Positions 9,213-57,703 of a stretch of 64,000 nt of DNA are shown piece after piece. The stretch is taken from NCBI GenBank assembly GCA_902461935.1, contig CABPZP010000002.1, positions 43,685 through 107,684 on the forward strand, in the 5' to 3' direction. Position 1 is the first letter of the stretch; each line of letters opens with the position of its first letter. The position numbers and the translations under genes are program-made. Below the pieces are notes generated by a model that saw only the letters and a list, made by a program, of their open reading frames with translations, did no database searches and was not told the DNA's origin. This DNA comes from an uncultured Clostridium sp. (GTDB lineage Bacteria; Bacillota; Clostridia; TANB77; CAG-508).

Positions 9213-11342
9213 ATGGATAAAAACGTAAGAGAAAATATAGAAATATACAAAACATATGCTTTAAATAATAAAAACAAATTAACATCAAACATTCAAATAT
9301 CCAATATCAAAACTCAAACATCTAACCTCGGATTTCCAACCTCCAATACTGCAATCACATTGGTAGCTTTGGTAATCACCATAATTGTTCTATTAATTCT
9401 TGCTGGAATAACCATAAATATGGTAGTAGGAGAAAATGGAATATTTGCCAAAGCAACTAATGCAAAAAATAAAACAGAAGTAGCGCAATACGAGGAAGAA
9501 TTAAGAATGTGTGTATTAGAATTGCAGGCAGATGAAGCCACAAATGGAACAACATTTAATATGGAAACAATAAAAAATAAATTTGAAGAGAAAGTAAAAA
9601 AAACAGAAAATACAGATGATATAGAATTTCCAATAACAAAGAGCGAAACAAGATTAGATGGAATTTATAAAGGTTATGAATTTTATATAGACGAAAAATA
9701 TGTAGTACATATAGGAGAAAAAACAACAGGAATACGAATACTAACAAATATAGAACCAACAGGCTGGACAAAAGGACCAGTAAAAGTAAATATAACAATA
9801 AAAAGCAATAATGGACTAGCAAAAATAAAACCAGAAAACGAAGAAGAAATAGACGTAGGCGGAAAAACAGAATATGTAATAACAAAAGAAAATATAACAC
9901 AAAATACAACATTCAAATATGAAGTAACAGATAATCAAGGAACTACGACAAACAAAACAATAGATATAAAAAATATAGATACAAATGCACCTACAAAATG
10001 CGAAATAGAAAGAATAGAAAACACAGAAGAAGGCTTAAAAATAACAGTAAATGCGGAAGATGAAGAAAGTGGAATAGAAAAAATAGAATACCATGTAATA
10101 GATGGAGATAATAAAGAAGAAATATATACAACAAATGTAATAAATAATTTGTCTGGAACTCAATATAGTATATATGTAGTAGCATATGATAAAGCCGGAA
10201 ATAAAAAACAAACGGAAAAAATAAATGTAAAAGTAACAAGGAAATATGAAGATATAGAAGCAGGAGAAAATGCAACATTTGCAATAGATAAAAAAGGAGA
10301 TTTATGGTATTCAGGTTTTTCAAGTCATGGAGATCCAAATGGAAAAGGAAGTTTGAGCTCAACTCAATTTACAAAAATGATAGAAGGGAAAAATCTAAAA
10401 GAAATAAAATGTGGAATAAGGGATGATCACTTTTTTGCTTTGGATAATGAAAATAATTTATATGCATGGGGACATAATACTTATGGACAAATAGGAAATG
10501 GAATAAAAAATAATGCAAATTATGAAATTACAGAAATAAAAACAGATGGAAAATTATTTAAAGAAGTTGCTAACCAAGATACATTATCAAGAGCAATAGA
10601 TGAAGATGGCAATATATGGGTATGGGGAGCCAGAACATTGGGAAATGGAACGAATGGAACTACAGGCACTCCAATAAAATTAAATGTGAATACAACATTT
10701 AAGAAAATAAGTGCAGGAGGTACTTCAACTAATGCTTGGAATTGTACAATTGCAATAGATATAAATGGAAATCTGTGGTCATGGGGAAATAATTCATGGG
10801 GACAGTTAGGATTAGAAAAAAGTGTTAAGGAAAGCTTGGTACCTCAAGAAATAAATACAGAAAATACAAAATTTAAAGAAATATCAGCGGGAGAATACCA
10901 CGTACTTGCAATAGATGAAAGTGGAAATATATGGTCTTGGGGAGATAATAGTTATACACAACTTGGAAGAATACTAGAAGGTACTGAGAAACAGAGTAAT
11001 GTTCCAACTATGTTAAATACAAATGGTATAAAATTTTCGCAGGTTTCTGCAGGAGAATATCAGTCATTAGCAATAGATATAGATGGAAATCTGTGGTCAT
11101 GGGGAGACAATTCTCGTGGACAAATAGGACAAGAAAAAAATAAAAAAATTGCAATTCCAACGAAAGTTGAAACAGAAAGTGCAAAAGGAGTAAAATTCAA
11201 AAAAATATCAGCTGGAAATAATCATAGTGTTGCATTAGATGAGGATGGGAATATTTGGGCTTGTGGAGATTGTGGTAACGGAAAATTGTCTAATGGCTAT
11301 ACTAGTGGATATAAGAATACTTTTGAAATGATTGGAATATAA
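9213..11342 (+). CDS. large secreted/surface protein: pilin-like N-terminal hydrophobic module + Ig-like region + RCC1-repeat beta-propeller
   Basis: AITLVALVITIIVLLILAGITINMVVGENGIF resembles a prepilin-type segment. About seven repeats of the form (I/L)W.WG.N..GQ(L/I)G. Confidence 0.7.
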   Translation: MDKNVRENIEIYKTYALNNKNKLTSNIQISNIKTQTSNLGFPTSNTAITLVALVITIIVLLILAGITINMVVGENGIFAKATNAKNKTEVAQYEEELRMCVLELQADEATNGTTFNMETIKNKFEEKVKKTENTDDIEFPITKSETRLDGIYKGYEFYIDEKYVVHIGEKTTGIRILTNIEPTGWTKGPVKVNITIKSNNGLAKIKPENEEEIDVGGKTEYVITKENITQNTTFKYEVTDNQGTTTNKTIDIKNIDTNAPTKCEIERIENTEEGLKITVNAEDEESGIEKIEYHVIDGDNKEEIYTTNVINNLSGTQYSIYVVAYDKAGNKKQTEKINVKVTRKYEDIEAGENATFAIDKKGDLWYSGFSSHGDPNGKGSLSSTQFTKMIEGKNLKEIKCGIRDDHFFALDNENNLYAWGHNTYGQIGNGIKNNANYEITEIKTDGKLFKEVANQDTLSRAIDEDGNIWVWGARTLGNGTNGTTGTPIKLNVNTTFKKISAGGTSTNAWNCTIAIDINGNLWSWGNNSWGQLGLEKSVKESLVPQEINTENTKFKEISAGEYHVLAIDESGNIWSWGDNSYTQLGRILEGTEKQSNVPTMLNTNGIKFSQVSAGEYQSLAIDIDGNLWSWGDNSRGQIGQEKNKKIAIPTKVETESAKGVKFKKISAGNNHSVALDEDGNIWACGDCGNGKLSNGYTSGYKNTFEMIGI

Positions 11343-45374: not shown

Positions 45375-45449
45375 TTTAGAGCTTACTATAAAATTACTTC
45401 TATATTTATAGAAGAAAAAACTCAAAAAACCATGCTACTTTAATAAACA

Positions 45450-45575
45450 AAATAAAGAAATCAAAAACGAGTATTGCTAGGCAAATGAAATAAAATTTTT
45501 GAGGCAGTACGTTTGTACGGCGATAAAATTTTATTGAAATTTAACAACGCAAGACGAAGTTTTTCATTTATTTAG
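45450..45575 (+). repeat. structured intergenic element E, copy 1 (upstream of rplC)
   Basis: Nested hairpins: aaatgaaa...tttcattt outside, ataaaatttt...aaaattttat inside, GC core gcagtac-gttt-gtacggc. Collinear with 47599-47729. Confidence 0.7.
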
Positions 45576-45601
45576 TAGCCAATAGTTAGGAGGAAAGAAA
45601 T

Positions 45602-47581: not shown

Positions 47582-47598
47582 AACCGTAAATATGTAAA

Positions 47599-47729
47599 TA
47601 AATAGAGAAACAAGCAAAAGCGAGCAGTACTAGGAAAATGAATTCAAAATCCGCAGTCGTACATTGGTACGTCGAGGACATTTTGAATGAAATTTGACAC
47701 CGCAATGCGAAGGTTTTCATTGTTTCGAG
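47599..47729 (+). repeat. structured intergenic element E, copy 2 (upstream of rplB)
   Basis: Same architecture as 45450-45575: aaaatgaa...ttcatttt outside, ttcaaaat...attttgaa inside, core gcagtcgtac-attg-gtacgtcgagg, then tgaaatttgacaccgcaatgcgaagg. Confidence 0.7.
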
Positions 47730-47742
47730 AAAGGAAGTTATT

Positions 47743-48570
47743 ATGGGAATGAAACACTTTAACCCATACACCCCATCAAGAAGAAATATGACTGTTTCTA
47801 CATTTGATGAAATCACTAAAAAAACTCCTGAAAAATCTTTATTAGCAAAGAAAAAAGAAAATGCAGGAAGAAACAACTATGGTAGAATAACAGTTAGACA
47901 TCAAGGTGGAGGAAATAGACAAAAATACAGAATAATAGATTTTAAAAGAAGAAAAGATGATATGACAGCAACAGTTATAGGAATCGAATACGATCCAAAC
48001 AGAAGTGCAAATATCGCATTAATTCAATATGAAGATGGAGAAAAAGCTTATATTTTAGCTCCAGTTGGATTAACAGATGGAGATAAAGTTGTATCTGGAC
48101 AAAAAGCTGATATCAAACCAGGAAACTGTATGCCAATAGAAAGTATTCCAGTTGGTACTATGATTCACAATATAGAATTAAATCCAGGTCAAGGTGGAAA
48201 ATTAGTAAGAAGTGCTGGACAATCTGCACAACTTATGGCTAAAGAAGGAAAATATTCACATGTTAGATTACCTTCAGGAGAAATGAGATTAATATTAACA
48301 AAATGTAGAGCTACAATAGGAACAGTTGGAAATACAGACCACGATACTATGAAAATTGGTAAAGCTGGTAGAAAAAGACATATGGGTATTAGACCAACAG
48401 TTAGAGGTTCTGTTATGAACCCAGTAGATCACCCACATGGTGGTGGTGAAGGTAGAGCTCCAGTTGGACACGCAGGACCAATGACACCTTGGGGTAAACC
48501 AGCTCTAGGATATAAAACAAGAAATAAAAAGAAATTATCTAACAAATTTATTGTTAAGAGAAGAAAATAG
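47743..48570 (+). CDS. rplB: 50S ribosomal protein L2
   Basis: [13 protein letters not shown]...HPHGGGEGR. Confidence 0.95.
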
Positions 48571-48668
48571 AGGTTGGAAGTTGGAAATTGGAAGTTGGTT
48601 ATTTTTTATAGAATTTAATATTTGTAATTTTTAACATCAAACCTCCAACATCTAACATCTTGAGGTAA
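48571..48668 (+). repeat. intergenic hairpin family H, copy 1 (GGAAGUUGG arms / UCCAACAUCUAACAUC)
   Basis: 5' arm aggttggaagttggaaattggaagttgg. The 3' arm contains tccaacatctaacatc (48644-48659). Pairing needs G:U wobbles, so it is strand-specific. Confidence 0.7.
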
Positions 48669-48687
48669 GAAAGGAGGACATATCTAT

Positions 48688-48969
48688 ATGTCAAGATCAA
48701 GCAAAAAGAAACCTTTTGTTCAAGAAAAACTTTTAAAAAGAATTGAAGCTATGAACGAAAGTGGAGAAAAAGAAGTTTTAAAAACATGGTCAAGAGCTTC
48801 TACTATATATCCACAAATGATTGGACACACAATTGCTGTTCATGATGGTAGAAAACATGTACCAGTTTATATTTCAGAAGAAATGATAGGACATAAATTA
48901 GGTGAATTTGCTCCTACAAGAACATACAAAGGTCATGCAGGAGATAAAACTTCTAAAGTTAAAAAATAA
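48688..48969 (+). CDS. rpsS: 30S ribosomal protein S19
   Basis: [10 protein letters not shown]...[11 protein letters not shown]. Confidence 0.95.
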
Positions 48970-49037
48970 AGAGAAAATAAAATGTTAAAAGTTAAATAAA
49001 AATTTAACAAAACAATAACTAAAGGAGGGAAAACAAA

Positions 49038-49388
49038 GTGGAAGGAATTCAAGAAGCAAGAGCAGAACTAAAATATGCCAGAATTTCAGCAAGAAAAGTT
49101 AAAATTGTAGCAGATTTAGTAAGAGGGAAAAATGTTGATGAAGCTTTAGCAATAATGAAATTCACACCTAAAGCATCAACAGAAATATTAGAAAAATTAT
49201 TAAAATCAGCTATTGCAAATGCTGAAAATAATCATGGAATGAGCCATGAAAAATTATATATATCTGAAATCTATGCTAACCAAGGTCCTACATTAAAAAG
49301 AATTAGACCAGCAGCTAAAGGTTCAGCAGTTAGAATTAGAAAAAGAACAAGTCATATAACTATCGTTTTAAGAGAAATCGATAAGTAG
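49038..49388 (+). CDS. rplV: 50S ribosomal protein L22
   Basis: [24 protein letters not shown]; GTG start. Confidence 0.9.
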
Positions 49389-49404
49389 AAAGGAGAAATA
49401 TAAC

Positions 49405-50061
49405 ATGGGACAAAAAGTAAACCCACATGGAGTTAGAGTAGGTGTTATAAAAGATTGGGACTCTAAATGGTATGCAAATTCAAAAGATTTTAGTAACTAT
49501 TTAGTAGAAGATTACAATATCCGTAAAATGCTTAAGAAAAAATTATATGCAAGCGGAATTTCTAAAATAGAAATAGAAAGAACACCAAAATTTGTTAAAG
49601 TAAATGTATATACAGCTAAACCAGGAATAGTAATAGGAAAAGGTGGAGCTGGAGCTGAAAGTATAAAAGCAGATTTACAAAAAATGATTAATAAAAATGT
49701 TAATTTAAATATAGTTGAGGTAAAAGATATTGATACAAATGCTCAATTAGTTGCAGAAAATATCGCAGGTCAACTAGAAAGAAGAATTTCATTCAGAAGA
49801 GCTATGAAACAATGTATGCAAAAAACTATGAAAGCAGGTGCTTTAGGAATAAAAACTGCAGTATCTGGTAGATTAGGTGGAGCAGACATGGCTAGAACTG
49901 AATTCTATAAAGAAGGTACAATACCACTACAAACATTAAGAGCTGATATTGATTATGGATTTGCAGAAGCAGATACAACATATGGAAAAATCGGTGTAAA
50001 AGTTTGGATTTATAAAGGAGAAGTTCTTCCAACAAAGAAAAAGGAAGGAGGAGTTGAGTAA
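49405..50061 (+). CDS. rpsC: 30S ribosomal protein S3
   Basis: [22 protein letters not shown]. Confidence 0.95.
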
Positions 50062-50504
50062 TGCCATTAATGCCAAAAAGAACTAAATATAGAAAAATGC
50101 AAAAAGGTAGAAATAGAGGTAAAGCTACAAGAGGTAATAAAGTTACTGATGGAGAATATGGAATACAAGCTTTAGAAGCAGGATTAATTACTGGAAATCA
50201 AATAGAAGCTGCACGTATTGCTATGAACCGTTATATAAAAAGAGGTGGTAAAGTTTGGATAAAAATATTCCCAGACAAACCAATTACTAAAAAACCTGCA
50301 GAAACTCGTATGGGTAAAGGTAAAGGAGCTGTAGAAGCTTGGGTAGCAGTTGTTAAACCAGGAAGAGTAATGTTTGAACTTGCTGGTGTACCAGAAGAAA
50401 CAGCTAGAGAAGCTATGAGATTAGCAATGAATAAATTATCTGTAAAATCTAAATTTATAGTTAGAGAATCTGATGATAAGGTGGGTGATAGCAATGAAGA
50501 TTAA
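50061..50504 (+). CDS. rplP: 50S ribosomal protein L16
   Basis: [14 protein letters not shown]... Confidence 0.95.
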
Positions 50505-50697
50505 TAAAATAAGAGAAATGTCTTCACCAGATCTAGAAAAAGAATTATCTGAATTAAAAACAGAGTTATTCAAATTAAGATTTAGTTTAGCTACAAATGG
50601 GTTAGATAATCCAAGCAGAATTAAAGAAGTAAAAAGAGATATAGCTAAAATAAATACAGTTTTAACAGAAAGAAGATTGGCTGAAGAAGTAAAATAA
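50494..50697 (+). CDS. rpmC: 50S ribosomal protein L29
   Basis: [30 protein letters not shown]; start moved to the ATG at 50494. Confidence 0.9.
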
Positions 50698-50700
50698 AAA

Positions 50701-50745
50701 AGTTAGAAGTTAGAATTAAAGAATTTTCTAACATTCAACATCCAA
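50701..50745 (+). repeat. intergenic hairpin family H, copy 2
   Basis: agttagaagttagaa / ttctaacattcaacat. Confidence 0.6.
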
Positions 50746-50769
50746 TATGAAAAAAGGAGGATTTAATAG

Positions 50770-51033
50770 ATGGAAGAAAGAAATCTTCGTAAAGTTTTAA
50801 TAGGTACAGTAAAATCAAACAAAATGGACAAAACAGTAGTTGTATCTGTTCAAACAAGTGTAAAACATAAAACATATAACAAAATTGTTAAAAGAACATA
50901 TAACTTAAAAGCTCATGACGAAGAGAATGCTTGTCAAATTGGAGATAAAGTTAAAGTTATGGAAACAAGACCACTTTCTAAAGATAAAAGATGGAGAGTA
51001 GTTGAAATAATGGAAAAAGCTAATATTAAATAA
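50770..51033 (+). CDS. rpsQ: 30S ribosomal protein S17
   Basis: [21 protein letters not shown]. Confidence 0.95.
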
Positions 51034-51050
51034 GAAGGAGGAAGCTAAAA

Positions 51051-51419
51051 ATGGTACAACAACAATCAATATTAAAAGTTGCTGATAACACTGGTGCAAA
51101 AGAAATAATGTGCATTAGATGTTTAGGTGGATCATATAGAAAATATGCTAGAATTGGTGATGTAATAGTAGCTTCTGTTAAATCTGCAACACCAGGTGGC
51201 GTTGTAAAAAAAGGAGAAGTTGTTAAAGCAGTTGTAGTTAGAACAAAAAAACCAACTAGAAGAGCAGATGGATCATATGTAAGATTTGATGAAAATGCTG
51301 CAGTTATTATAAAAGACGATGGAAATCCAAAAGGAACACGTATATTTGGACCAATAGCAAGAGAATTAAGAGATAAAGATTATATGAAGATTTTATCTCT
51401 AGCACCAGAGGTATTATAA
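51051..51419 (+). CDS. rplN: 50S ribosomal protein L14
   Basis: [22 protein letters not shown]. Confidence 0.95.
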
Positions 51420-51440
51420 TTTGCAAGCAAATTATAATAC

Positions 51441-51469
51441 TTGTAGGGGTCGGCGTCCTCGACGACCCG
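51441..51469 (+). repeat. REP-like hairpin between rplN and rplX
   Basis: TTGTAGGGGTCGGCGTCCTCGACGACCCG. ORF 51432..51650(-) is a translation artefact of it. Confidence 0.85.
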
Positions 51470-51516
51470 AAACATGAAGAGAGTAAAAATATAAAAAAAG
51501 AGGTGAAAATATAAGT

Positions 51517-51825
51517 ATGAAAATAAAAAAAGGTGATACTGTTAAGGTTTTATCTGGAAATGATAAAGGAAAAACAGGAGAAGTTTTAGAAGTTATACCA
51601 AAAACACAAAAAATAGTTGTTAAAGGTATTAATATAAGAAAAAAACACATTAAACCTAGAAAACAAGGTGAAGAGGGAGGAATTATCCCTACAGAATGTG
51701 CTATACATAGCAGTAAAGTTAATGTCGTTTGCCCTAAATGTGGTAAAGCTACAAAAATAGGTTATAAAATAGAAAAAGATGAAAAAGTTCGTATTTGTAA
51801 AAAATGTGAAGCTATAATCAAATAA
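51517..51825 (+). CDS. rplX: 50S ribosomal protein L24 (with C-terminal zinc-ribbon-like CxxC pairs)
   Basis: MKIKKGDTVKVLSGNDKGKTGEV...CPKCG...CKKC. Confidence 0.9.
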   Translation: MKIKKGDTVKVLSGNDKGKTGEVLEVIPKTQKIVVKGINIRKKHIKPRKQGEEGGIIPTECAIHSSKVNVVCPKCGKATKIGYKIEKDEKVRICKKCEAIIK

Positions 51826-51849
51826 GTTATAGAAAGGAGGAAATAAAAC

Positions 51850-52389
51850 ATGGAATTTTTAAGAGAACAATATGAAAAAGAAGTTGTTCCAGCTTTAATG
51901 AAAAAATTTAACTATAAATCAGTTATGGAAGTTCCAAAACTTGATAAAATAGTTTTAAATATAGGATTAGGAGATGTAAAAGATAATCCAAAATCATTAG
52001 AAAATGCAATGAATGATATTCAAATAATAACAGGTCAAAAACCTATAGTAACAAAAGCTAGAAAATCTATAGCAGCTTTCAAACTAAGAGAAGGTGTTAA
52101 TATAGGATGTAAAGTAACATTAAGAAGAGGAAAAATGTATGATTTCGCATATAAACTATTTAATGTTGCATTACCAAGAGTTAGAGATTTTAGAGGAGTT
52201 TCAGCTAATTCTTTTGATGGTAGAGGTAACTACTCTATGGGAATTAAAGAACAATTAATATTCCCTGAAATCGAATATGATAAAGTTGATAAATTAAGAG
52301 GAATGGATATAATCTTCGTTACAACAGCTAAAACAGACGAAGAAGCTAAAGAATTATTAACATTATTAGGAATGCCATTTAAAAAATAA
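51850..52389 (+). CDS. rplE: 50S ribosomal protein L5
   Basis: ...[12 protein letters not shown]...[17 protein letters not shown]. Confidence 0.95.
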
Positions 52390-52474
52390 TTAGGCAATGC
52401 CGATTACAAATAATTTTTGCAGCCGAGCATTAGCGAGGATGTATTTCCTAAAAAAAATATGAAGGGAGAAAATT

Positions 52475-52660
52475 ATGGCTAAAAAATCTTTGAAAGTAAA
52501 ACAACAAAGAGATCAAAAATACAAAACAAGAGAATATAACAGATGTAAAATATGTGGTAGACCACACGCTTATATAAGAAAATTTGGTATTTGCCGTGTT
52601 TGTTTTAGAGAATTAGCACATAAAGGTGAGATACCAGGTGTTAAAAAAGCTAGTTGGTAA
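52475..52660 (+). CDS. rpsN: 30S ribosomal protein S14 type Z (zinc form)
   Basis: 61 aa; CKICGRPH...CRVCFRE. Confidence 0.95.
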
Positions 52661-52784
52661 AATTCAAATGAAATCAATTATCCTGCACATTTTCTTAATT
52701 ATTACAAACTTCAATGTAAAAATGTACATTATCAGCTTGTAATAACCGGCGAAAATGCACATTATAACTAATTTCATTCGAATT
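52661..52784 (+). repeat. long rod-like imperfect hairpin (about 124 nt) between rpsN and rpsH
   Basis: aattcaaatgaaat...aatgta-aaaatg-tacatt...atttcattcgaatt; several paired blocks. Confidence 0.65.
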
Positions 52785-52825
52785 AAAAATAAACTAGACA
52801 AAAAACTAAAAAAAGGAGGAAAGTA

Positions 52826-53224
52826 ATGAATACTACAGATCCAATAGCAGATATGCTAACAAGAATAAGAAATGCAAGTAATTCTAAACATAAAACTGTT
52901 GATGTACCAGCTTCAAAAGTAAAAAGAGCAATAGCTGAAATTTTATTTGAAGAAGGATATATTGCATCTTTTGAAGATATAAAAGATGATACACAAGGTG
53001 TTATAAGAATTACATTAAAATATGATGAAAATGGAACTAAAGTTATTTCTGGATTAAAAAGAATAAGTAAACCAGGATTAAGAGTTTATGCTTCTAAAGA
53101 AGAATTACCTAAAGTTTTAAATGGATTAGGAATTGCTTTAATTTCTACTTCAAAAGGTATAAAAACAGATAAAGAAGCAAGAAATGAAAACTTAGGTGGA
53201 GAAGTTCTAGCATATGTTTGGTAA
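52826..53224 (+). CDS. rpsH: 30S ribosomal protein S8
   Basis: [13 protein letters not shown]. Confidence 0.95.
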
Positions 53225-53287
53225 TAAAAATATGCTAGTTACCTAAATAATAAATATGAAGTTTTATAAGAAGAGGTGAAATTAAAA

Positions 53288-53824
53288 ATGTCAAGAATAG
53301 GAAATAAACCTATTACTGTACCAGATAGTGTTGAAGTTAAAATAGATGGAAACAACTTAACAGTAAAAGGACCTAAAGGAACATTAGAAAGAGAAATTCA
53401 TAAAAACATAACAGTTTCTATTGATGGTAATGTTATTACTGTAACAAGACCTAATGACGAAGCTGAAAATAAAAGTTTACATGGATTAACAAGAACATTA
53501 ATTAGTAACATGATAGAAGGTGTTCTAAATGAATATAGCAAAGAATTACAAATCGTTGGTGTAGGTTATAGAGCACAAAAACAAGGAAATAAAGTTGTTC
53601 TTACTTTAGGATATTCTCATCCAGTAGAAATGGAAGAACCAGAAGGAATTACATTTGATGTTCCTAATGCAAATACAGTTATAGTAAGAGGAATCGATAA
53701 AGAAGTTGTTGGTCAAACAGCTGCTGTTGTAAGAAGCAAGAGACCACCAGAAGTATACCATGGTAAAGGTATTAAATATGCAGATGAGCATATAAGAAGA
53801 AAAGAAGGAAAAACAGGTAAATAA
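53288..53824 (+). CDS. rplF: 50S ribosomal protein L6
   Basis: MSRIGNKPITVP... Confidence 0.95.
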   Translation: MSRIGNKPITVPDSVEVKIDGNNLTVKGPKGTLEREIHKNITVSIDGNVITVTRPNDEAENKSLHGLTRTLISNMIEGVLNEYSKELQIVGVGYRAQKQGNKVVLTLGYSHPVEMEEPEGITFDVPNANTVIVRGIDKEVVGQTAAVVRSKRPPEVYHGKGIKYADEHIRRKEGKTGK

Positions 53825-53875
53825 AAAATGAACTGTTAAATAAGAACAAACCTTAAAGAAAGGAGTAGTTGAACT

Positions 53876-54235
53876 ATGGTTAAAAAAACAAATAGAAAGT
53901 TTGAAAGAACTAGAAGACATATTCGTGTACGTAGAAAAATTAGTGGTACAGCAGAACGTCCAAGATTATGTGTATATAGAAGTAATACAAATATATATGC
54001 ACAAGTAATTGACGATGTTGCTGGTAAAACTTTAGTTTCAGCTTCAACATTAGATAAAGAAGTTAAAACAAAGAAAGCTAATAAAGAAGCAGCAAAAGAA
54101 ATTGGAAGTTTAATTGCAAAAAGAGCTAAAGATGCTAAAATATCAAATGTTGTATTTGATAGAGGTGGATATGTATACCACGGAGTTGTTAAAGAATTAG
54201 CAGAAGCTGCTAGAGAAGGCGGATTAGAATTCTAA
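53876..54235 (+). CDS. rplR: 50S ribosomal protein L18
   Basis: [24 protein letters not shown]...[10 protein letters not shown]. Confidence 0.95.
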
Positions 54236-54239
54236 TTAT

Positions 54240-54294
54240 AGATTAGAAGTTAGAAGTTTGAATTATTATATTCCAACATCTAACATCAAATCCT
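54240..54294 (+). repeat. intergenic hairpin family H, copy 3
   Basis: agattagaagttagaagtttgaa / ttccaacatctaacatcaaatc. The 16-mer tccaacatctaacatc (54272-54287) is identical to copy 1. Confidence 0.7.
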
Positions 54295-54342
54295 CTAAAT
54301 AAAGATTATATGAGAAAATAAAAAAGAAGGAGGCAAGTCTTA

Positions 54343-54831
54343 ATGCAAGAAGAAAAAACAGAATTAAAGGAAAAAGTTGTTGCTATAAACAGAGTTGCTA
54401 AAGTTGTTAAAGGTGGTAGAACTTTTAGATTTAGTGCTTTAGTTGTTGTTGGTGACGAAAATGGACATATTGGTGCAGGTAACGGTAAAGCATCAGAAGT
54501 TCCAGATGCGATAAAAAAAGCAATTGAAGATGCTAAAAAGAATTTAATAGAAGTTCCAATCGTTGGAAATACAATACCACATGAATTTGTTGGAAAATTT
54601 GGTAGTGCAAATGTTATGATGAAACCAGCCCCAGAAGGTTCTGGAATTATAGCAGGTGGTAGTGTAAGACCAGTAATAGAACTTGCAGGATACAAAGATA
54701 TAAAAACAAAAGTTATAGGAACAAACAATCCTAGAAATGTTGTATATGCTACATTAAATGCATTACAAAACATGAGTACAGCAGAACAAGTTGCTAAAAA
54801 AAGAGGTAAAAAAGTAGAAGAAATATTATAA
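54343..54831 (+). CDS. rpsE: 30S ribosomal protein S5
   Basis: [27 protein letters not shown]. Confidence 0.95.
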
Positions 54832-54906
54832 TTGAGATTGGAAGTTGGAGGTTAGAGGTTGTAAATATTACAGTAGATTCTAACAACAAACATTCAACTT
54901 CAATAA
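54832..54906 (+). repeat. intergenic hairpin family H, copy 4 (occupies the position where rpmD/L30 usually lies)
   Basis: ttgagattggaagttggaggttagaggttg / agattctaacaacaaacattcaacttcaa. Confidence 0.6.
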
Positions 54907-57498: not shown

Positions 57499-57657
57499 AT
57501 GTCAGACGTTGTAGGGGTCGGCGTCCTTAGGGCGACCCGAAAGATGAAATAAAAAATATTCCAAAATAATATATATATTTAAAATTTGATCTTAATTATT
57601 ATTTTGTCTTTAAATAAAAATTGTCAAACGATGTAGTGGTCGACGTCTCTGTCGACC
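57499..57657 (+). repeat. two REP-like units between adk and map
   Basis: atgtcagacgttGTAGGGGTCGGCGTCCTTAGGGCGACCCG at 57499-57539. tgtcaaacgatGTAGTGGTCGACGTCTCTGTCGACC at 57622-57657. The spacer shares ttattttgtctttaaataa with 24811-24835. Confidence 0.85.
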
Positions 57658-57703
57658 AGAAATATAAAAATAATTATAAATGTTTAGAAAGAAGATAATG
57701 AAA

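Follow-up and report, generated by a model that had tools for sequence, protein, structure and literature searches.

The spacers after rplB, rpmC, rplR and rpsE in the ribosomal protein operon of an uncultured gut Clostridia MAG (genome 1.44 Mb, 27% GC, 96.6% complete) each hold a hairpin built from tandem heptamers. These elements have been inserted between one gene's stop codon and the ribosome-binding site (RBS) of the next gene. They change fast by gain and loss of whole units, most simply through replication slippage, come and go between species, and concentrate at translation-related operon junctions. With a probability of about 0.6 they are lineage-restricted foldback repeats, selfish or near-neutral heptamer-repeat DNA rather than a dedicated regulator of ribosomal proteins. 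The elements would be transcribed within the operon mRNA and then fold back, which would keep the upstream stop codon near the downstream RBS, so that the insert could be tolerated. Selection on the transcribed strand would mainly remove harm, i.e. false translation starts: the G-rich arm in the mRNA would be kept without Shine-Dalgarno (SD) cores (GGAGG) and AUG, and the arm of the non-transcribed strand would carry both freely. Inserts tolerated in this way, under selection that mainly removes harm, would therefore be selfish or near-neutral repeat DNA of the kind seen in long simple-sequence repeats (LSSR) and in the cyanobacterial STRR heptamers (short tandemly repeated repetitive sequences).

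The four hairpins and their family

The first-pass annotation had placed four imperfect hairpins in these spacers, and all four are real and lie where it put them. The arm repeat, described there as an 8-10-mer, is corrected to a tandem heptamer, R-G-A-N-R-T-T, in phased units of period 7. Each element is an inverted pair of short heptamer arrays (3-6 units) around a variable AT-rich loop. Copy 1 (48569..48659, + strand, rplB/rpsS junction) has the 5' arm AGAGGTT GGAAGTT GGAAATT GGAAGTT GG at 48569-48598, an AT-rich loop, and the 3' arm TAACATC AAACCTC CAACATC TAACATC at 48632-48659. Its 5' arm overlaps the rplB stop codon TAG (48568-48570), and the rpsS RBS lies downstream at 48671-48678. Copy 2 (50698..50747, + strand, rpmC/rpsQ junction) has the 5' arm AAAAGTT AGAAGTT AGAAT and the 3' arm TTTCTAACATTCAACATCCAAT; the corresponding arms of copy 3 (54238..54295, + strand, rplR/rpsE junction) are ATAGATT AGAAGTT AGAAGTT TGAAT and ATTCCAACATCTAACATCAAATCCTC, and those of copy 4 (54832..54904, + strand, rpsE/rplO junction) are TTGAGATTGGAAGTTGGAGGTTAGAGGTTG and TTCTAACAACAAACATTCAACTTCAAT. 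The 16-mer TCCAACATCTAACATC is indeed common to copies 1 and 3, and the distance from hairpin end to next RBS is about 10-30 nt in all four copies, both as first described. The G-rich arm adjoins the stop codon, not the RBS, and the normal RBS stays intact. A weakly called candidate for a decayed copy (AAATGTT AAAAGTT AAAT ... ATTTAAC AAAACAA TAAC) is located at 48980..49019 (+ strand) in the rpsS/rplV spacer, on the basis of its sequence and a weak fold. The four spacers contain no terminator-like site (+ strand) or promoter signature; the hairpins do not have the GC-rich stem and U tract of an intrinsic terminator or attenuator, and no T run follows the 3' arms. The hairpins had not been recognized as a known family, and no Rfam 15 covariance model, those of ribosomal protein autoregulatory leaders included, matches them at gathering score. 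The sole Rfam match across the window (the whole 64-kb stretch of DNA that was analysed) is OLE RNA at 780-1366.

The four hairpins are members of one family, as had been proposed. RGAAGTTRGA occurs five times in the window, all on the + strand, versus 0.77 expected. About 30 loci with at least 3 phased units are present in the 1.44-Mb genome, and a four-unit pattern, searched with up to 2 mismatches allowed, gave 43 matches versus 3 with a reversed-pattern control. The tandem 7-nt units are longer and commoner than chance, as in LSSR/STRR-like repeats. The family is not restricted to ribosomal protein operons, since the genome search finds many other sites: the tpiA/gpmI, porA/porB and nrdD/nrdG junctions, a site before gatA, and further sites between convergent genes and after terminators. 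Solo arrays are found within the coding leaders of seven pilin-like genes. The one in the window, a C-rich array at 9296..9344 (+ strand; AACATTC AAATATC CAATATC AAAACTC AAACATC TAACCTC ...), lies on the sense strand of a gene for a pilin-like surface protein (9213-11342), within its 5' coding leader, where it encodes ...SNIQISNIKTQTSNLGFPTSN immediately ahead of an ITLVAL membrane segment; the six paralogues of this gene elsewhere in the genome have an array in identical orientation. Four copies of the family have a loop core of about 40 nt in common (74% mean identity); judged by this identity, the subfamily shows that at least some copies spread as units. The ribosomal protein copies have only the unit consensus in common and their loops differ, which does not demonstrate common descent by transposition. 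For the heptamer family, neither a transposase nor a target-site duplication nor any other mechanism of mobility was identified.

Turnover among relatives and enrichment in translation operons

The distribution of the family is patchy. It is present in 5 of 25 same-genus genomes, and the exact four-unit run in 27 of 251 genomes and 13 of 50 genera of the bacterial family, with a control near zero. The spacers had been called unusually long, and they measure 72-117 nt here versus about 3-40 nt at empty sites in relatives; the rplB/rpsS spacer of empty-site relatives is 3-41 nt. Short similar strings occur at the flanks of copies 1-3, and the available empty sites in relatives are highly diverged, too much so for a target duplication to be demonstrable. 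In genome G012, copies lie at rpsD/rpoA, rplE/rpsN, rpmC/rpsQ, rpsS/rplV and tpiA/gpmI. Its rpmC/rpsQ copy is the diverged counterpart of copy 2, a clear heptamer hairpin stands at rpsS/rplV, the junction of the candidate decayed copy, and its rplR/rpsE junction, the site of copy 3, is empty (20 nt). Genome G008 has copies at rpsL/rpsG and rpsK/rpsD, plus seven at non-ribosomal sites. Among strains 95-99% identical over 12 kb the elements differ by whole-heptamer indels and loop changes, and the flanks are identical. The indels affect copies 1-3 and are unit-number changes of the kind expected from slippage. The orthologues of copy 1 in G020 and G022 have a one-heptamer difference in an arm and a loop deletion, each arm of copy 2 is one unit longer in both genomes, and copy 3 of G022 is longer by two units in the 5' arm and by one in the 3' arm. 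In copy 4 of G022 the arms are near-identical, with changes only in the loop. Such rapid turnover of copies and units speaks against a conserved regulatory structure.

The gene rpmD is absent from the cluster, as first reported, and copy 4 had been seen as occupying its place. Neither the host genome nor any of 12 relatives from five genera has L30, whether or not an element stands between rpsE and rplO, and this junction is empty (16-59 nt) in many relatives that are also without rpmD. Absence of L30 is a trait of the whole lineage and has no connection with copy 4, which does not stand in for the gene.

The link to translation genes is strong. The family is over-represented at junctions of the ribosomal protein and str operons (odds ratio 42, p = 2.5e-8), with 7 of 28 S10/spc/alpha/str junctions occupied in the host genome versus 8 of 1015 other co-oriented ones, and enrichment in translation operons is seen in three species, at differing junctions. 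Since this 40-fold enrichment falls in the most constrained operons of the genome, tolerated junk is insufficient by itself; either formation or insertion must be targeted there, or the elements must confer a benefit. Hairpin repeats of other families, unrelated to this one, also fill the same operon in the host and its relatives, which points to a site that is permissive or targeted and not to a specific function.

Folding, strand and polarity

RNA of the + strand folds better than shuffled sequence (z = -1.8, -2.8, -4.7 and -3.1 for copies 1-4), and the - strand folds as well (z = -2.2, -2.2, -3.9 and -2.5). The helices had been said to rely on G:U wobbles, but copies 2 and 3 have zero G:U pairs. 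The 12 full hairpins in the genome together contain 28 G:U pairs in sense versus 35 in antisense, and the sense-minus-antisense folding energy scatters about zero. The defect that recurs in the helices, one per unit, is a 1x1 mismatch of the A.A or A.C type. With both strands equally able to fold, the G:U argument for strand specificity does not hold. A purine/U-rich 5' arm with a C/A-rich 3' arm is no strand-specific feature either, since any such hairpin shows it on either strand.

Selection on the sense RNA thus loses the G:U evidence offered for it, but a different polarity relative to genes is real. At unit position 4 of the G-rich arm the sense counts are A58/G23/T8 versus A17/G27/T30 in antisense (Fisher p = 1e-8), and within the host genome this polarity holds for 15 elements versus 3. 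Another genus gave A92/G15/T3 in sense versus A50/G33/T14 in antisense, and the polarity is also present in three further genomes. In 80 arms, ATG occurs 4 times in sense versus 24 in antisense (p = 1e-5) and GGAGG 6 versus 24 times (p = 2e-4). G is depleted in the arm of the sense (mostly leading) strand, although the leading strand is G-rich overall, so that mutational skew alone is no explanation of the polarity. Genes are co-oriented with replication at 85-95%, and at seven loci with a lagging-strand gene the polarity is blurred (sense arm A17/T9/G7); the polarity is therefore not cleanly assignable to transcription.

Other readings and known repeat systems

The strongest alternative, which we consider unlikely, is that the hairpins benefit the host as mRNA elements of long operons in heavy use. 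They might stop exonucleases (those acting 3'->5', or RNase J starting at a cut 5' end), or be processing sites for RNase III, which the host genome encodes, or for RNase Y. REP elements are the classic precedent, being reported to influence mRNA turnover (PMC3184786, PMC3479197). A benefit would suit the strong enrichment in translation operons of three species and the consistent orientation relative to genes, but most species of the genus and 224 of the 251 family genomes have short spacers and no element. Hairpin potential outlasts the unit indels, and the arms of copies 2 and 3 co-vary in length between strains; however, copies and unit numbers vary between near-identical strains, both strands are equally good at folding, and unrelated hairpin families occupy the same operon. 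In a coupling version, a CCUCC-containing 3' arm would pair alternately with the 5' arm or with the GGAGG of the next gene. The minimum-energy fold predicted for the whole copy-1 spacer does pair the CCUCC of the 3' arm with the rpsS RBS, but this pairing depends on one 5-mer in one copy.

It is improbable that the arrays serve to bind a protein that recognizes RNA or single-stranded DNA with a register of 7 nt, for which the candidates are a HutP-like protein (UAG-N4-UAG repeats), CsrA (GGA), ribosomal protein S1, a cold-shock protein (one molecule per heptamer) and an S23p/Avd-like four-helix bundle. Such a reader would account both for the period of 7 nt and for how the family has spread. 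Across 13 genera the unit sequence is conserved, the sense 5' arm is almost uniform RGAAGUU, and A-variant units yield UAG each 7 nt, but many units have UGG in place of UAG and the arms are predicted to be base-paired rather than single-stranded. S1, Csp and CsrA were suggested as binders of the TAACTGA heptamer repeats (PMC4679880). CsrA (PF02599) and cold-shock protein (PF00313) are not supported here, neither having a match in the 96.6%-complete genome. A heptamer-arm hairpin precedes 4 of 4 S23p genes inspected in relatives, but PF05635 is absent from the host genome, across the 251 genomes it does not track the family (7 of 27 positive versus 61 of 224 negative genomes), and those hairpins have a different unit, TGAATAR, which is not above chance in the host genome. 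The same results speak against a cassette of the S23p/23S rRNA intervening-sequence type.

Least probable, to the point of being very doubtful, is an independent origin in situ, slippage amplifying a local seed (e.g. SD-like GGAGG) and a stalled-fork template switch copying it inverted, with the family a product of convergence and not of descent; the units look like the SD core, no loop sequence is common to the ribosomal protein copies, strain-level unit-number changes show active slippage, and heptamers reportedly outnumber all other long simple-sequence repeats in most genomes, with polymerase slippage as the proposed cause (Mrazek et al. 2007, as relayed by PMC4679880). However, one and the same degenerate unit turns up at about 30 loci and across 13 genera, arrays are missing from most related genomes whose RBS sequences are the same, the local RBSs are GGAGGA or GGAGGTG and not GGAGGTT, the G-rich arm is beside the stop codon and away from the RBS, and the core-bearing subfamily is clearly dispersed as a unit.

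Read as selfish or near-neutral foldback repeats, the elements resemble several known systems in part. Bacterial MITEs, such as Correia/NEMIS in Neisseria and RUP/BOX in Streptococcus pneumoniae, are likewise non-coding foldback inserts (50-150 bp) in operons, co-transcribed and variable in presence between strains. In a MITE the terminal inverted repeats are defined, the internal sequence is conserved and the target site is duplicated, whereas a conserved core is found in only one four-member subfamily of the heptamer elements. STRR arrays form hairpins between hupS and hupL. The likeness to cyanobacterial STRR lies in tandem 7-nt units in intergenic spacers within operons, in single spacers that combine arrays of a unit with arrays of its complement, and in numerous copies dispersed over the genome; the hupS-asr0689 spacer of Nostoc PCC 7120 contains the arrays TTGTCAG/TTGTTAG and the complement CCACTGACTACTGAC (PMC2408588, Table 3). 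The two differ in unit sequence, phylum and base composition, and neither enrichment in ribosomal protein operons nor gene-relative polarity was found reported for STRR. The TAACTGA repeats of marine Beggiatoaceae are also heptamer arrays, placed just ahead of start codons, over-represented at translation genes, including internal junctions of ribosomal protein operons, and patchily distributed across the phylogeny; the proposals made for them are slippage and an RNA-binding protein (MacGregor 2015, PMC4679880). Those sets are direct repeats (169 direct, one indirect) and often abut the start codon, where they seem to replace the SD (PMC4679880), whereas the arrays here are paired inverted and lie beside the stop codon with the RBS kept. 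The RAYT-mobilized REP/BIME/REPIN elements (PMC3116915, PMC3184786) are similarly short, dispersed extragenic hairpin repeats, often co-transcribed at gene ends, with lineage-specific turnover and a proposed effect on mRNA stability; a REP is a single GC-rich stem of fixed sequence with a conserved 5' tetranucleotide (GTAG), tied to RAYT. The heptamer hairpins are AT-rich, with variable unit number and arm length, no GTAG tag and no identified transposase, and do not fit the short GC-rich palindrome of near-fixed sequence with GTAG that marks REP/REPIN. The host genome has four matches to PF01797 (Y1/RAYT transposase), and GC-rich REP-type hairpins with GTAG occur in it as a separate family, e.g. 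at 51444-51472.

Structure and repeat unit of the spacer hairpins

The genome (1.44 Mb, 27% GC, 27 contigs) carries the S10/spc ribosomal protein genes on the plus strand of the window, which corresponds to C2:43685-107684. Imperfect hairpins are present in all four spacers in which the first-pass annotation had placed them, namely rplB-rpsS, rpmC-rpsQ, rplR-rpsE and rpsE-rplO (copies 1 to 4). Its description of a 16-mer shared by copies 1 and 3, of a gap of 10-30 nt before each RBS and of a missing rpmD was correct, and the motif RGAAGTTRGA has five matches in the window (0.77 expected), every one on the plus strand. The hairpins form one family with period-7 units and about 30 loci. The unit is a heptamer, R-G-A-N-R-T-T, rather than the longer iteration originally described; a period-7 detector recovers the family, and a period-8 detector returned nothing. 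The strand specificity that had been read from G:U wobbles is rejected. Compared with shuffled sequences, the RNA of the plus strand folds with z-scores of -1.8, -2.8, -4.7 and -3.1 (copies 1 to 4) and that of the minus strand equally well (-2.2, -2.2, -3.9 and -2.5). G:U pairs, on which the helices were said to rely, are absent in copies 2 and 3; the full hairpins of the genome contain 28 of them in the sense and 35 in the antisense reading, and the difference in fold energy between the two readings scatters around zero. Either strand of such a hairpin has its G-rich arm 5' and its C-rich arm 3', so this arrangement is uninformative on strand. The helices are recurrently flawed by 1x1 mismatches, roughly one in each unit (A.A 14, A.C 13, U.C 6 and G.A 5 over 19 hairpins). 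No Rfam family matched the four spacers, and no terminator or promoter signature was found in them. The lengths of the two arms, over 32 hairpins of narrow range and by a crude count, are not significantly correlated.

Copy 4 had been noted to occupy the usual site of rpmD. This gene is missing between rpsE and rplO throughout the clade of relative loci L001-L023, and L30 (PF00327) was undetected in the present genome and 12 relatives, 13 genomes in all, which represent five genera of the order. The absence is a loss across the whole lineage, so copy 4 is no stand-in for rpmD.

Distribution and turnover of the heptamer family

About 30 loci with at least three phased units are present in the genome. 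The threshold was set at 3-4 units, two units being useless (261 matches vs about 220 in shuffled sequences); a TRF census of all period-7 arrays at low threshold was swamped by AT-rich noise. With flanking genes named by NCBIfam, full hairpins at co-oriented junctions are found, besides the four spacers, at rpsG-fusA and fusA-tuf of the str operon and at tpiA-gpmI, porA-porB, nrdD-nrdG, upstream of gatA, NifU-like-MntA-like, PAP2-unknown, unknown-ABC-ATPase and trhP-secD. A single G-rich arm lies at rpsL-rpsG, two heptamer hairpins lie in intervals between convergent genes, and several solo arms follow terminators, e.g. upstream of smpB. The association with ribosomal protein operons stands, with 7/28 junctions of the S10, spc, alpha and str operons occupied vs 8/1015 other co-oriented junctions (odds ratio 42, p = 2.5e-8); exclusivity to these operons does not, as tpiA-gpmI, porA-porB, convergent genes and pilin-like leaders are also occupied. 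The codon-adaptation index was uninformative as a proxy for the expression of flanking genes in this AT-rich genome, in which tuf ranks at the 62nd percentile.

The gene for a pilin-like surface protein at 9213-11342 of the window and its six paralogues (C5:51520, C1:59078, C1:99750, C12:34451, C3:45532 and C9:55309) all carry a solo C-rich heptamer array, in frame and in the same orientation, in the 5' leader (9296-9344 in the window). The array encodes ...PTSNxxFPTSN... directly before an ITLIALI membrane segment. The long N-terminal leaders of these genes also stay open across in-frame copies of the GC-rich REP hairpin, translated as ...VGADASVRP...

An RplE search recovered, at 77-91% identity, MAGs of uncultured gut Clostridia whose samples came from human, mouse, rabbit and rumen. 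Spacers of the same operon in L001-L023 range from about 0 to 297 nt, and the long ones occupy different junctions in each genome and hold other hairpin or repeat families, the heptamer family occurring only in L015 (rpsN-rpsH). In relatives with a short spacer at one of the four junctions, it consists solely of a stop codon and an RBS (3-40 nt), which indicates that the hairpins are insertions between the two. The bias towards translation operons recurs in other species at other junctions: four of the five loci of G012 lie in its ribosomal protein cluster (rpsD-rpoA, rplE-rpsN, rpmC-rpsQ and rpsS-rplV; the fifth at tpiA-gpmI), and the nine loci of G008 include rpsL-rpsG and rpsK-rpsD. Degenerate patterns were used for the census in place of a covariance model, whose fixed columns suit arms of variable unit number poorly. 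A four-unit pattern with up to two mismatches has 43 matches in the present genome, 6-28 in four other species of the genus, and 0-1 in the remaining 20 genomes of the genus and 16 genomes of other families. Exact four-unit runs occur in 27 of 251 genomes and 13 of 50 genera of the bacterial family, with a reversed-pattern control close to zero.

Two close strains, G020 (97-99% identity over about 7 kb) and G022 (95% over about 12 kb), have copies at the same junctions. Both arms of copy 2 are one unit longer in both strains. In G022 copy 3 is longer by two units in its 5' arm and by one in its 3' arm, and in copy 1 the loop is shorter and the 3' arm longer; in G020 copy 1 has one unit fewer. 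The flanks of these unit-variable copies 1-3 are identical in both strains. This turnover is the behaviour of a slippage-prone minisatellite and not that of a conserved RNA structure.

Polarity of the transcribed arm and its interpretation

A strand polarity is real, but it is a different one from that first proposed and does not rest on the wobble pairs. The G-rich arm was compared between its sense and antisense readings at loci with co-oriented flanking genes, counting position 4 of the unit. This genome together with G008 and G012 gave A58/G23/T8 in sense vs A17/G27/T30 in antisense (Fisher p = 1e-8; 15 elements vs 3), G231 and G276 of another genus A92/G15/T3 vs A50/G33/T14 (p = 9e-8), and G196, G246 and G223 A78/G14/T11 vs A39/G30/T13. 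Over 80 arms, ATG was counted 4 times in sense vs 24 in antisense (p = 1.4e-5) and GGAGG 6 vs 24 times (p = 1.7e-4). The transcribed G-rich arm is almost pure RGAAGUU, a variant that contains no AUG and is the least SD-like. In the background, A exceeds T on the sense strand of spacers by a factor of just 1.3, and the sense arm is G-depleted although the sense (mostly leading) strand is G-rich, with a GC skew of about +0.2; mutational skew alone is thus insufficient as an explanation. T-type (ATG-bearing) solo arms on the leading strand sit after terminators and may lie outside any mRNA. Adenine mutagenesis of the DGR kind was dropped as an explanation for the variable position, since the unit's other adenines are invariant. 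Since 85-95% of genes are co-oriented with replication, and since polarity is blurred at seven loci with lagging-strand genes (sense arms A17/T9/G7), the polarity may have a part that is linked to replication, or reflect an insertion mechanism with a fixed orientation. The strand asymmetry of this genome is very strong: the GC skew and the AT skew are each about +/-0.2, and the leading strand carries 85-95% of the coding sequence.

The polarity is most simply read as the result of purifying selection that removes false translation starts from mRNA; this would mean that the elements are transcribed and that selection acts at the RNA level, against harm rather than for function. The whole is best accounted for, with a probability of roughly 60%, by slippage-driven foldback repeats. 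The element would be co-transcribed within the operon mRNA, its folding back would make the insert tolerated, and false start signals (SD cores, AUG) would be removed from the transcribed arm by selection. The purge suggests that avoidance of false translation starts shapes the inserts in polycistronic mRNA, and its signature offers a simple way to distinguish repeat copies that are transcribed from those that are not. In annotation, a long spacer in a ribosomal protein operon of a gut Clostridia MAG should be taken neither for a regulatory leader nor for a missing gene such as rpmD.

A beneficial role of the hairpins in the mRNA is the foremost alternative to foldback repeats, and a doubtful one; the enrichment in translation operons speaks for it, and the unit numbers that change between strains against it. 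The genome encodes RNase III, which might cleave the mismatched stems of 20-35 bp. An improbable, more far-reaching reading takes heptamer-armed hairpins as a distinct operon-internal class across phyla, homing preferentially to stop/RBS junctions of ribosomal protein operons and acting as a coupling module. A process that works in 7-nt register and is linked to intense transcription or translation would create the hairpins at these junctions or home them there; the folded RNA would keep the stop codon close to the RBS that follows, and an anti-SD 3' arm would switch between the 5' arm and the RBS.

Arrays that bind a protein in 7-nt register are very unlikely, and rank below foldback repeats and a beneficial role. 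CsrA and cold-shock-domain proteins were suggested to bind heptamer repeats in Beggiatoaceae (PMC4679880); both were undetected in the present 96.6%-complete genome and are rejected as binders here. The lack of any cold-shock-domain protein is unusual in a bacterium. A link to PF05635 (S23p, the 23S-rRNA-IVS protein) was rejected: a first sample gave 4/12 vs 0/12, but the 251 genomes show no association (7/27 family-positive vs 61/224 family-negative genomes), and the gene is absent from the present genome. All four PF05635 genes inspected in relatives, L113 (G020:C16), L114 (G012:C9), L115 (G231:C1) and L116 (G210:C6), lie about 100 nt downstream of a heptamer-arm hairpin, whose unit (TGAATAR/TTAATAG) is a different one and is not above chance in the present genome. 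These genes sit in small cassettes, directly 3' of tRNA genes in L115 and L116, and each is preceded by ...CGCTCCAAATG and a small hairpin, then the heptamer-arm hairpin. No sequence matching the cassette of the near-identical strain G020 was found anywhere in the present genome.

Independent origin of the copies in situ, with no loop sequence common to the ribosomal protein copies on its side, is the least credible reading and also ranks below foldback repeats and a beneficial role, as four copies (C1:242431-242527 at porA-porB, C8:25877-25973, C4:87940-88044 and C19:18551-18633) have a common loop core of about 40 nt with 74% identity (GGAATTTAGAGTAATTTCTTCGAAGATTTGCTTTAATTTC, including its own TTCGAA palindrome), so that at least this subfamily was dispersed as a unit.

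Known repeats and other elements of the window

Among the long simple-sequence repeats of bacteria, tandem heptamers rank first in most genomes, and slippage of the polymerase was proposed as the cause of their abundance (both from Mrazek et al. 2007, as cited in PMC4679880). Why this is so and what role they have has been a question since they were catalogued. The present family is a compact study case, with a single defined unit in about 30 copies in 1.4 Mb, whole-unit differences between strains, a roughly 40-fold enrichment in translation operons and a signature in the transcribed arm. The TAACTGA direct repeats of Beggiatoaceae lie a short way 5' of start codons and are enriched at translation genes, also at junctions inside ribosomal protein operons (PMC4679880); with the cyanobacterial STRR heptamers, operon spacers contain arrays both of the unit and of its complement (PMC2408588, Table 3). 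The present elements resemble both: the unit has 7 nt, the position is inside operons and the spread is patchy. They are distinct in being regular inverted pairs that abut the stop codon and leave a normal RBS intact, in the strength of their concentration in translation operons, and in a sense arm purged of SD and AUG. They are no REPs, being AT-rich, without a GTAG tag and variable in unit number, and they fit the criteria for MITEs only in part. They are filed as heptamer-repeat or foldback-repeat elements.

Between rpsJ and secY, some 9-10 of 17 junctions hold hairpins of three to four unrelated families, with the heptamer hairpins and one REP among them. Three long palindromic elements of another family (about 120-160 nt) lie at 45375-45601 (rpsJ-rplC), 47582-47742 (rplW-rplB) and 52661-52785 (rpsN-rpsH), and look-alikes occupy different junctions in relatives (rplF-rplR, rplN-rplX, rpsS-rplV and rpsH-rplF). 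GC-rich GTAG-type hairpins (TGTAGGGGTCGGCGTCCTCGACGACCC) at 51444-51472 (rplN-rplX spacer) and, downstream of the gene after secY, at 57505-57540 and 57632-57660 are members of a genome-wide REP-like family; the genome has four matches to Y1-transposase (PF01797). A GC-richer hairpin at 52390-52474 in the rplE-rpsN spacer (GGCAATGCCGATT...GCAGCCGAGCATTAGC) was assigned to no recognised family and is identical in G022 bar one flank base. A full-length OLE (ornate large extremophilic) RNA lies at 780-1366 on the plus strand (Rfam, 365 bits), its host here being a small-genome gut Clostridia MAG.
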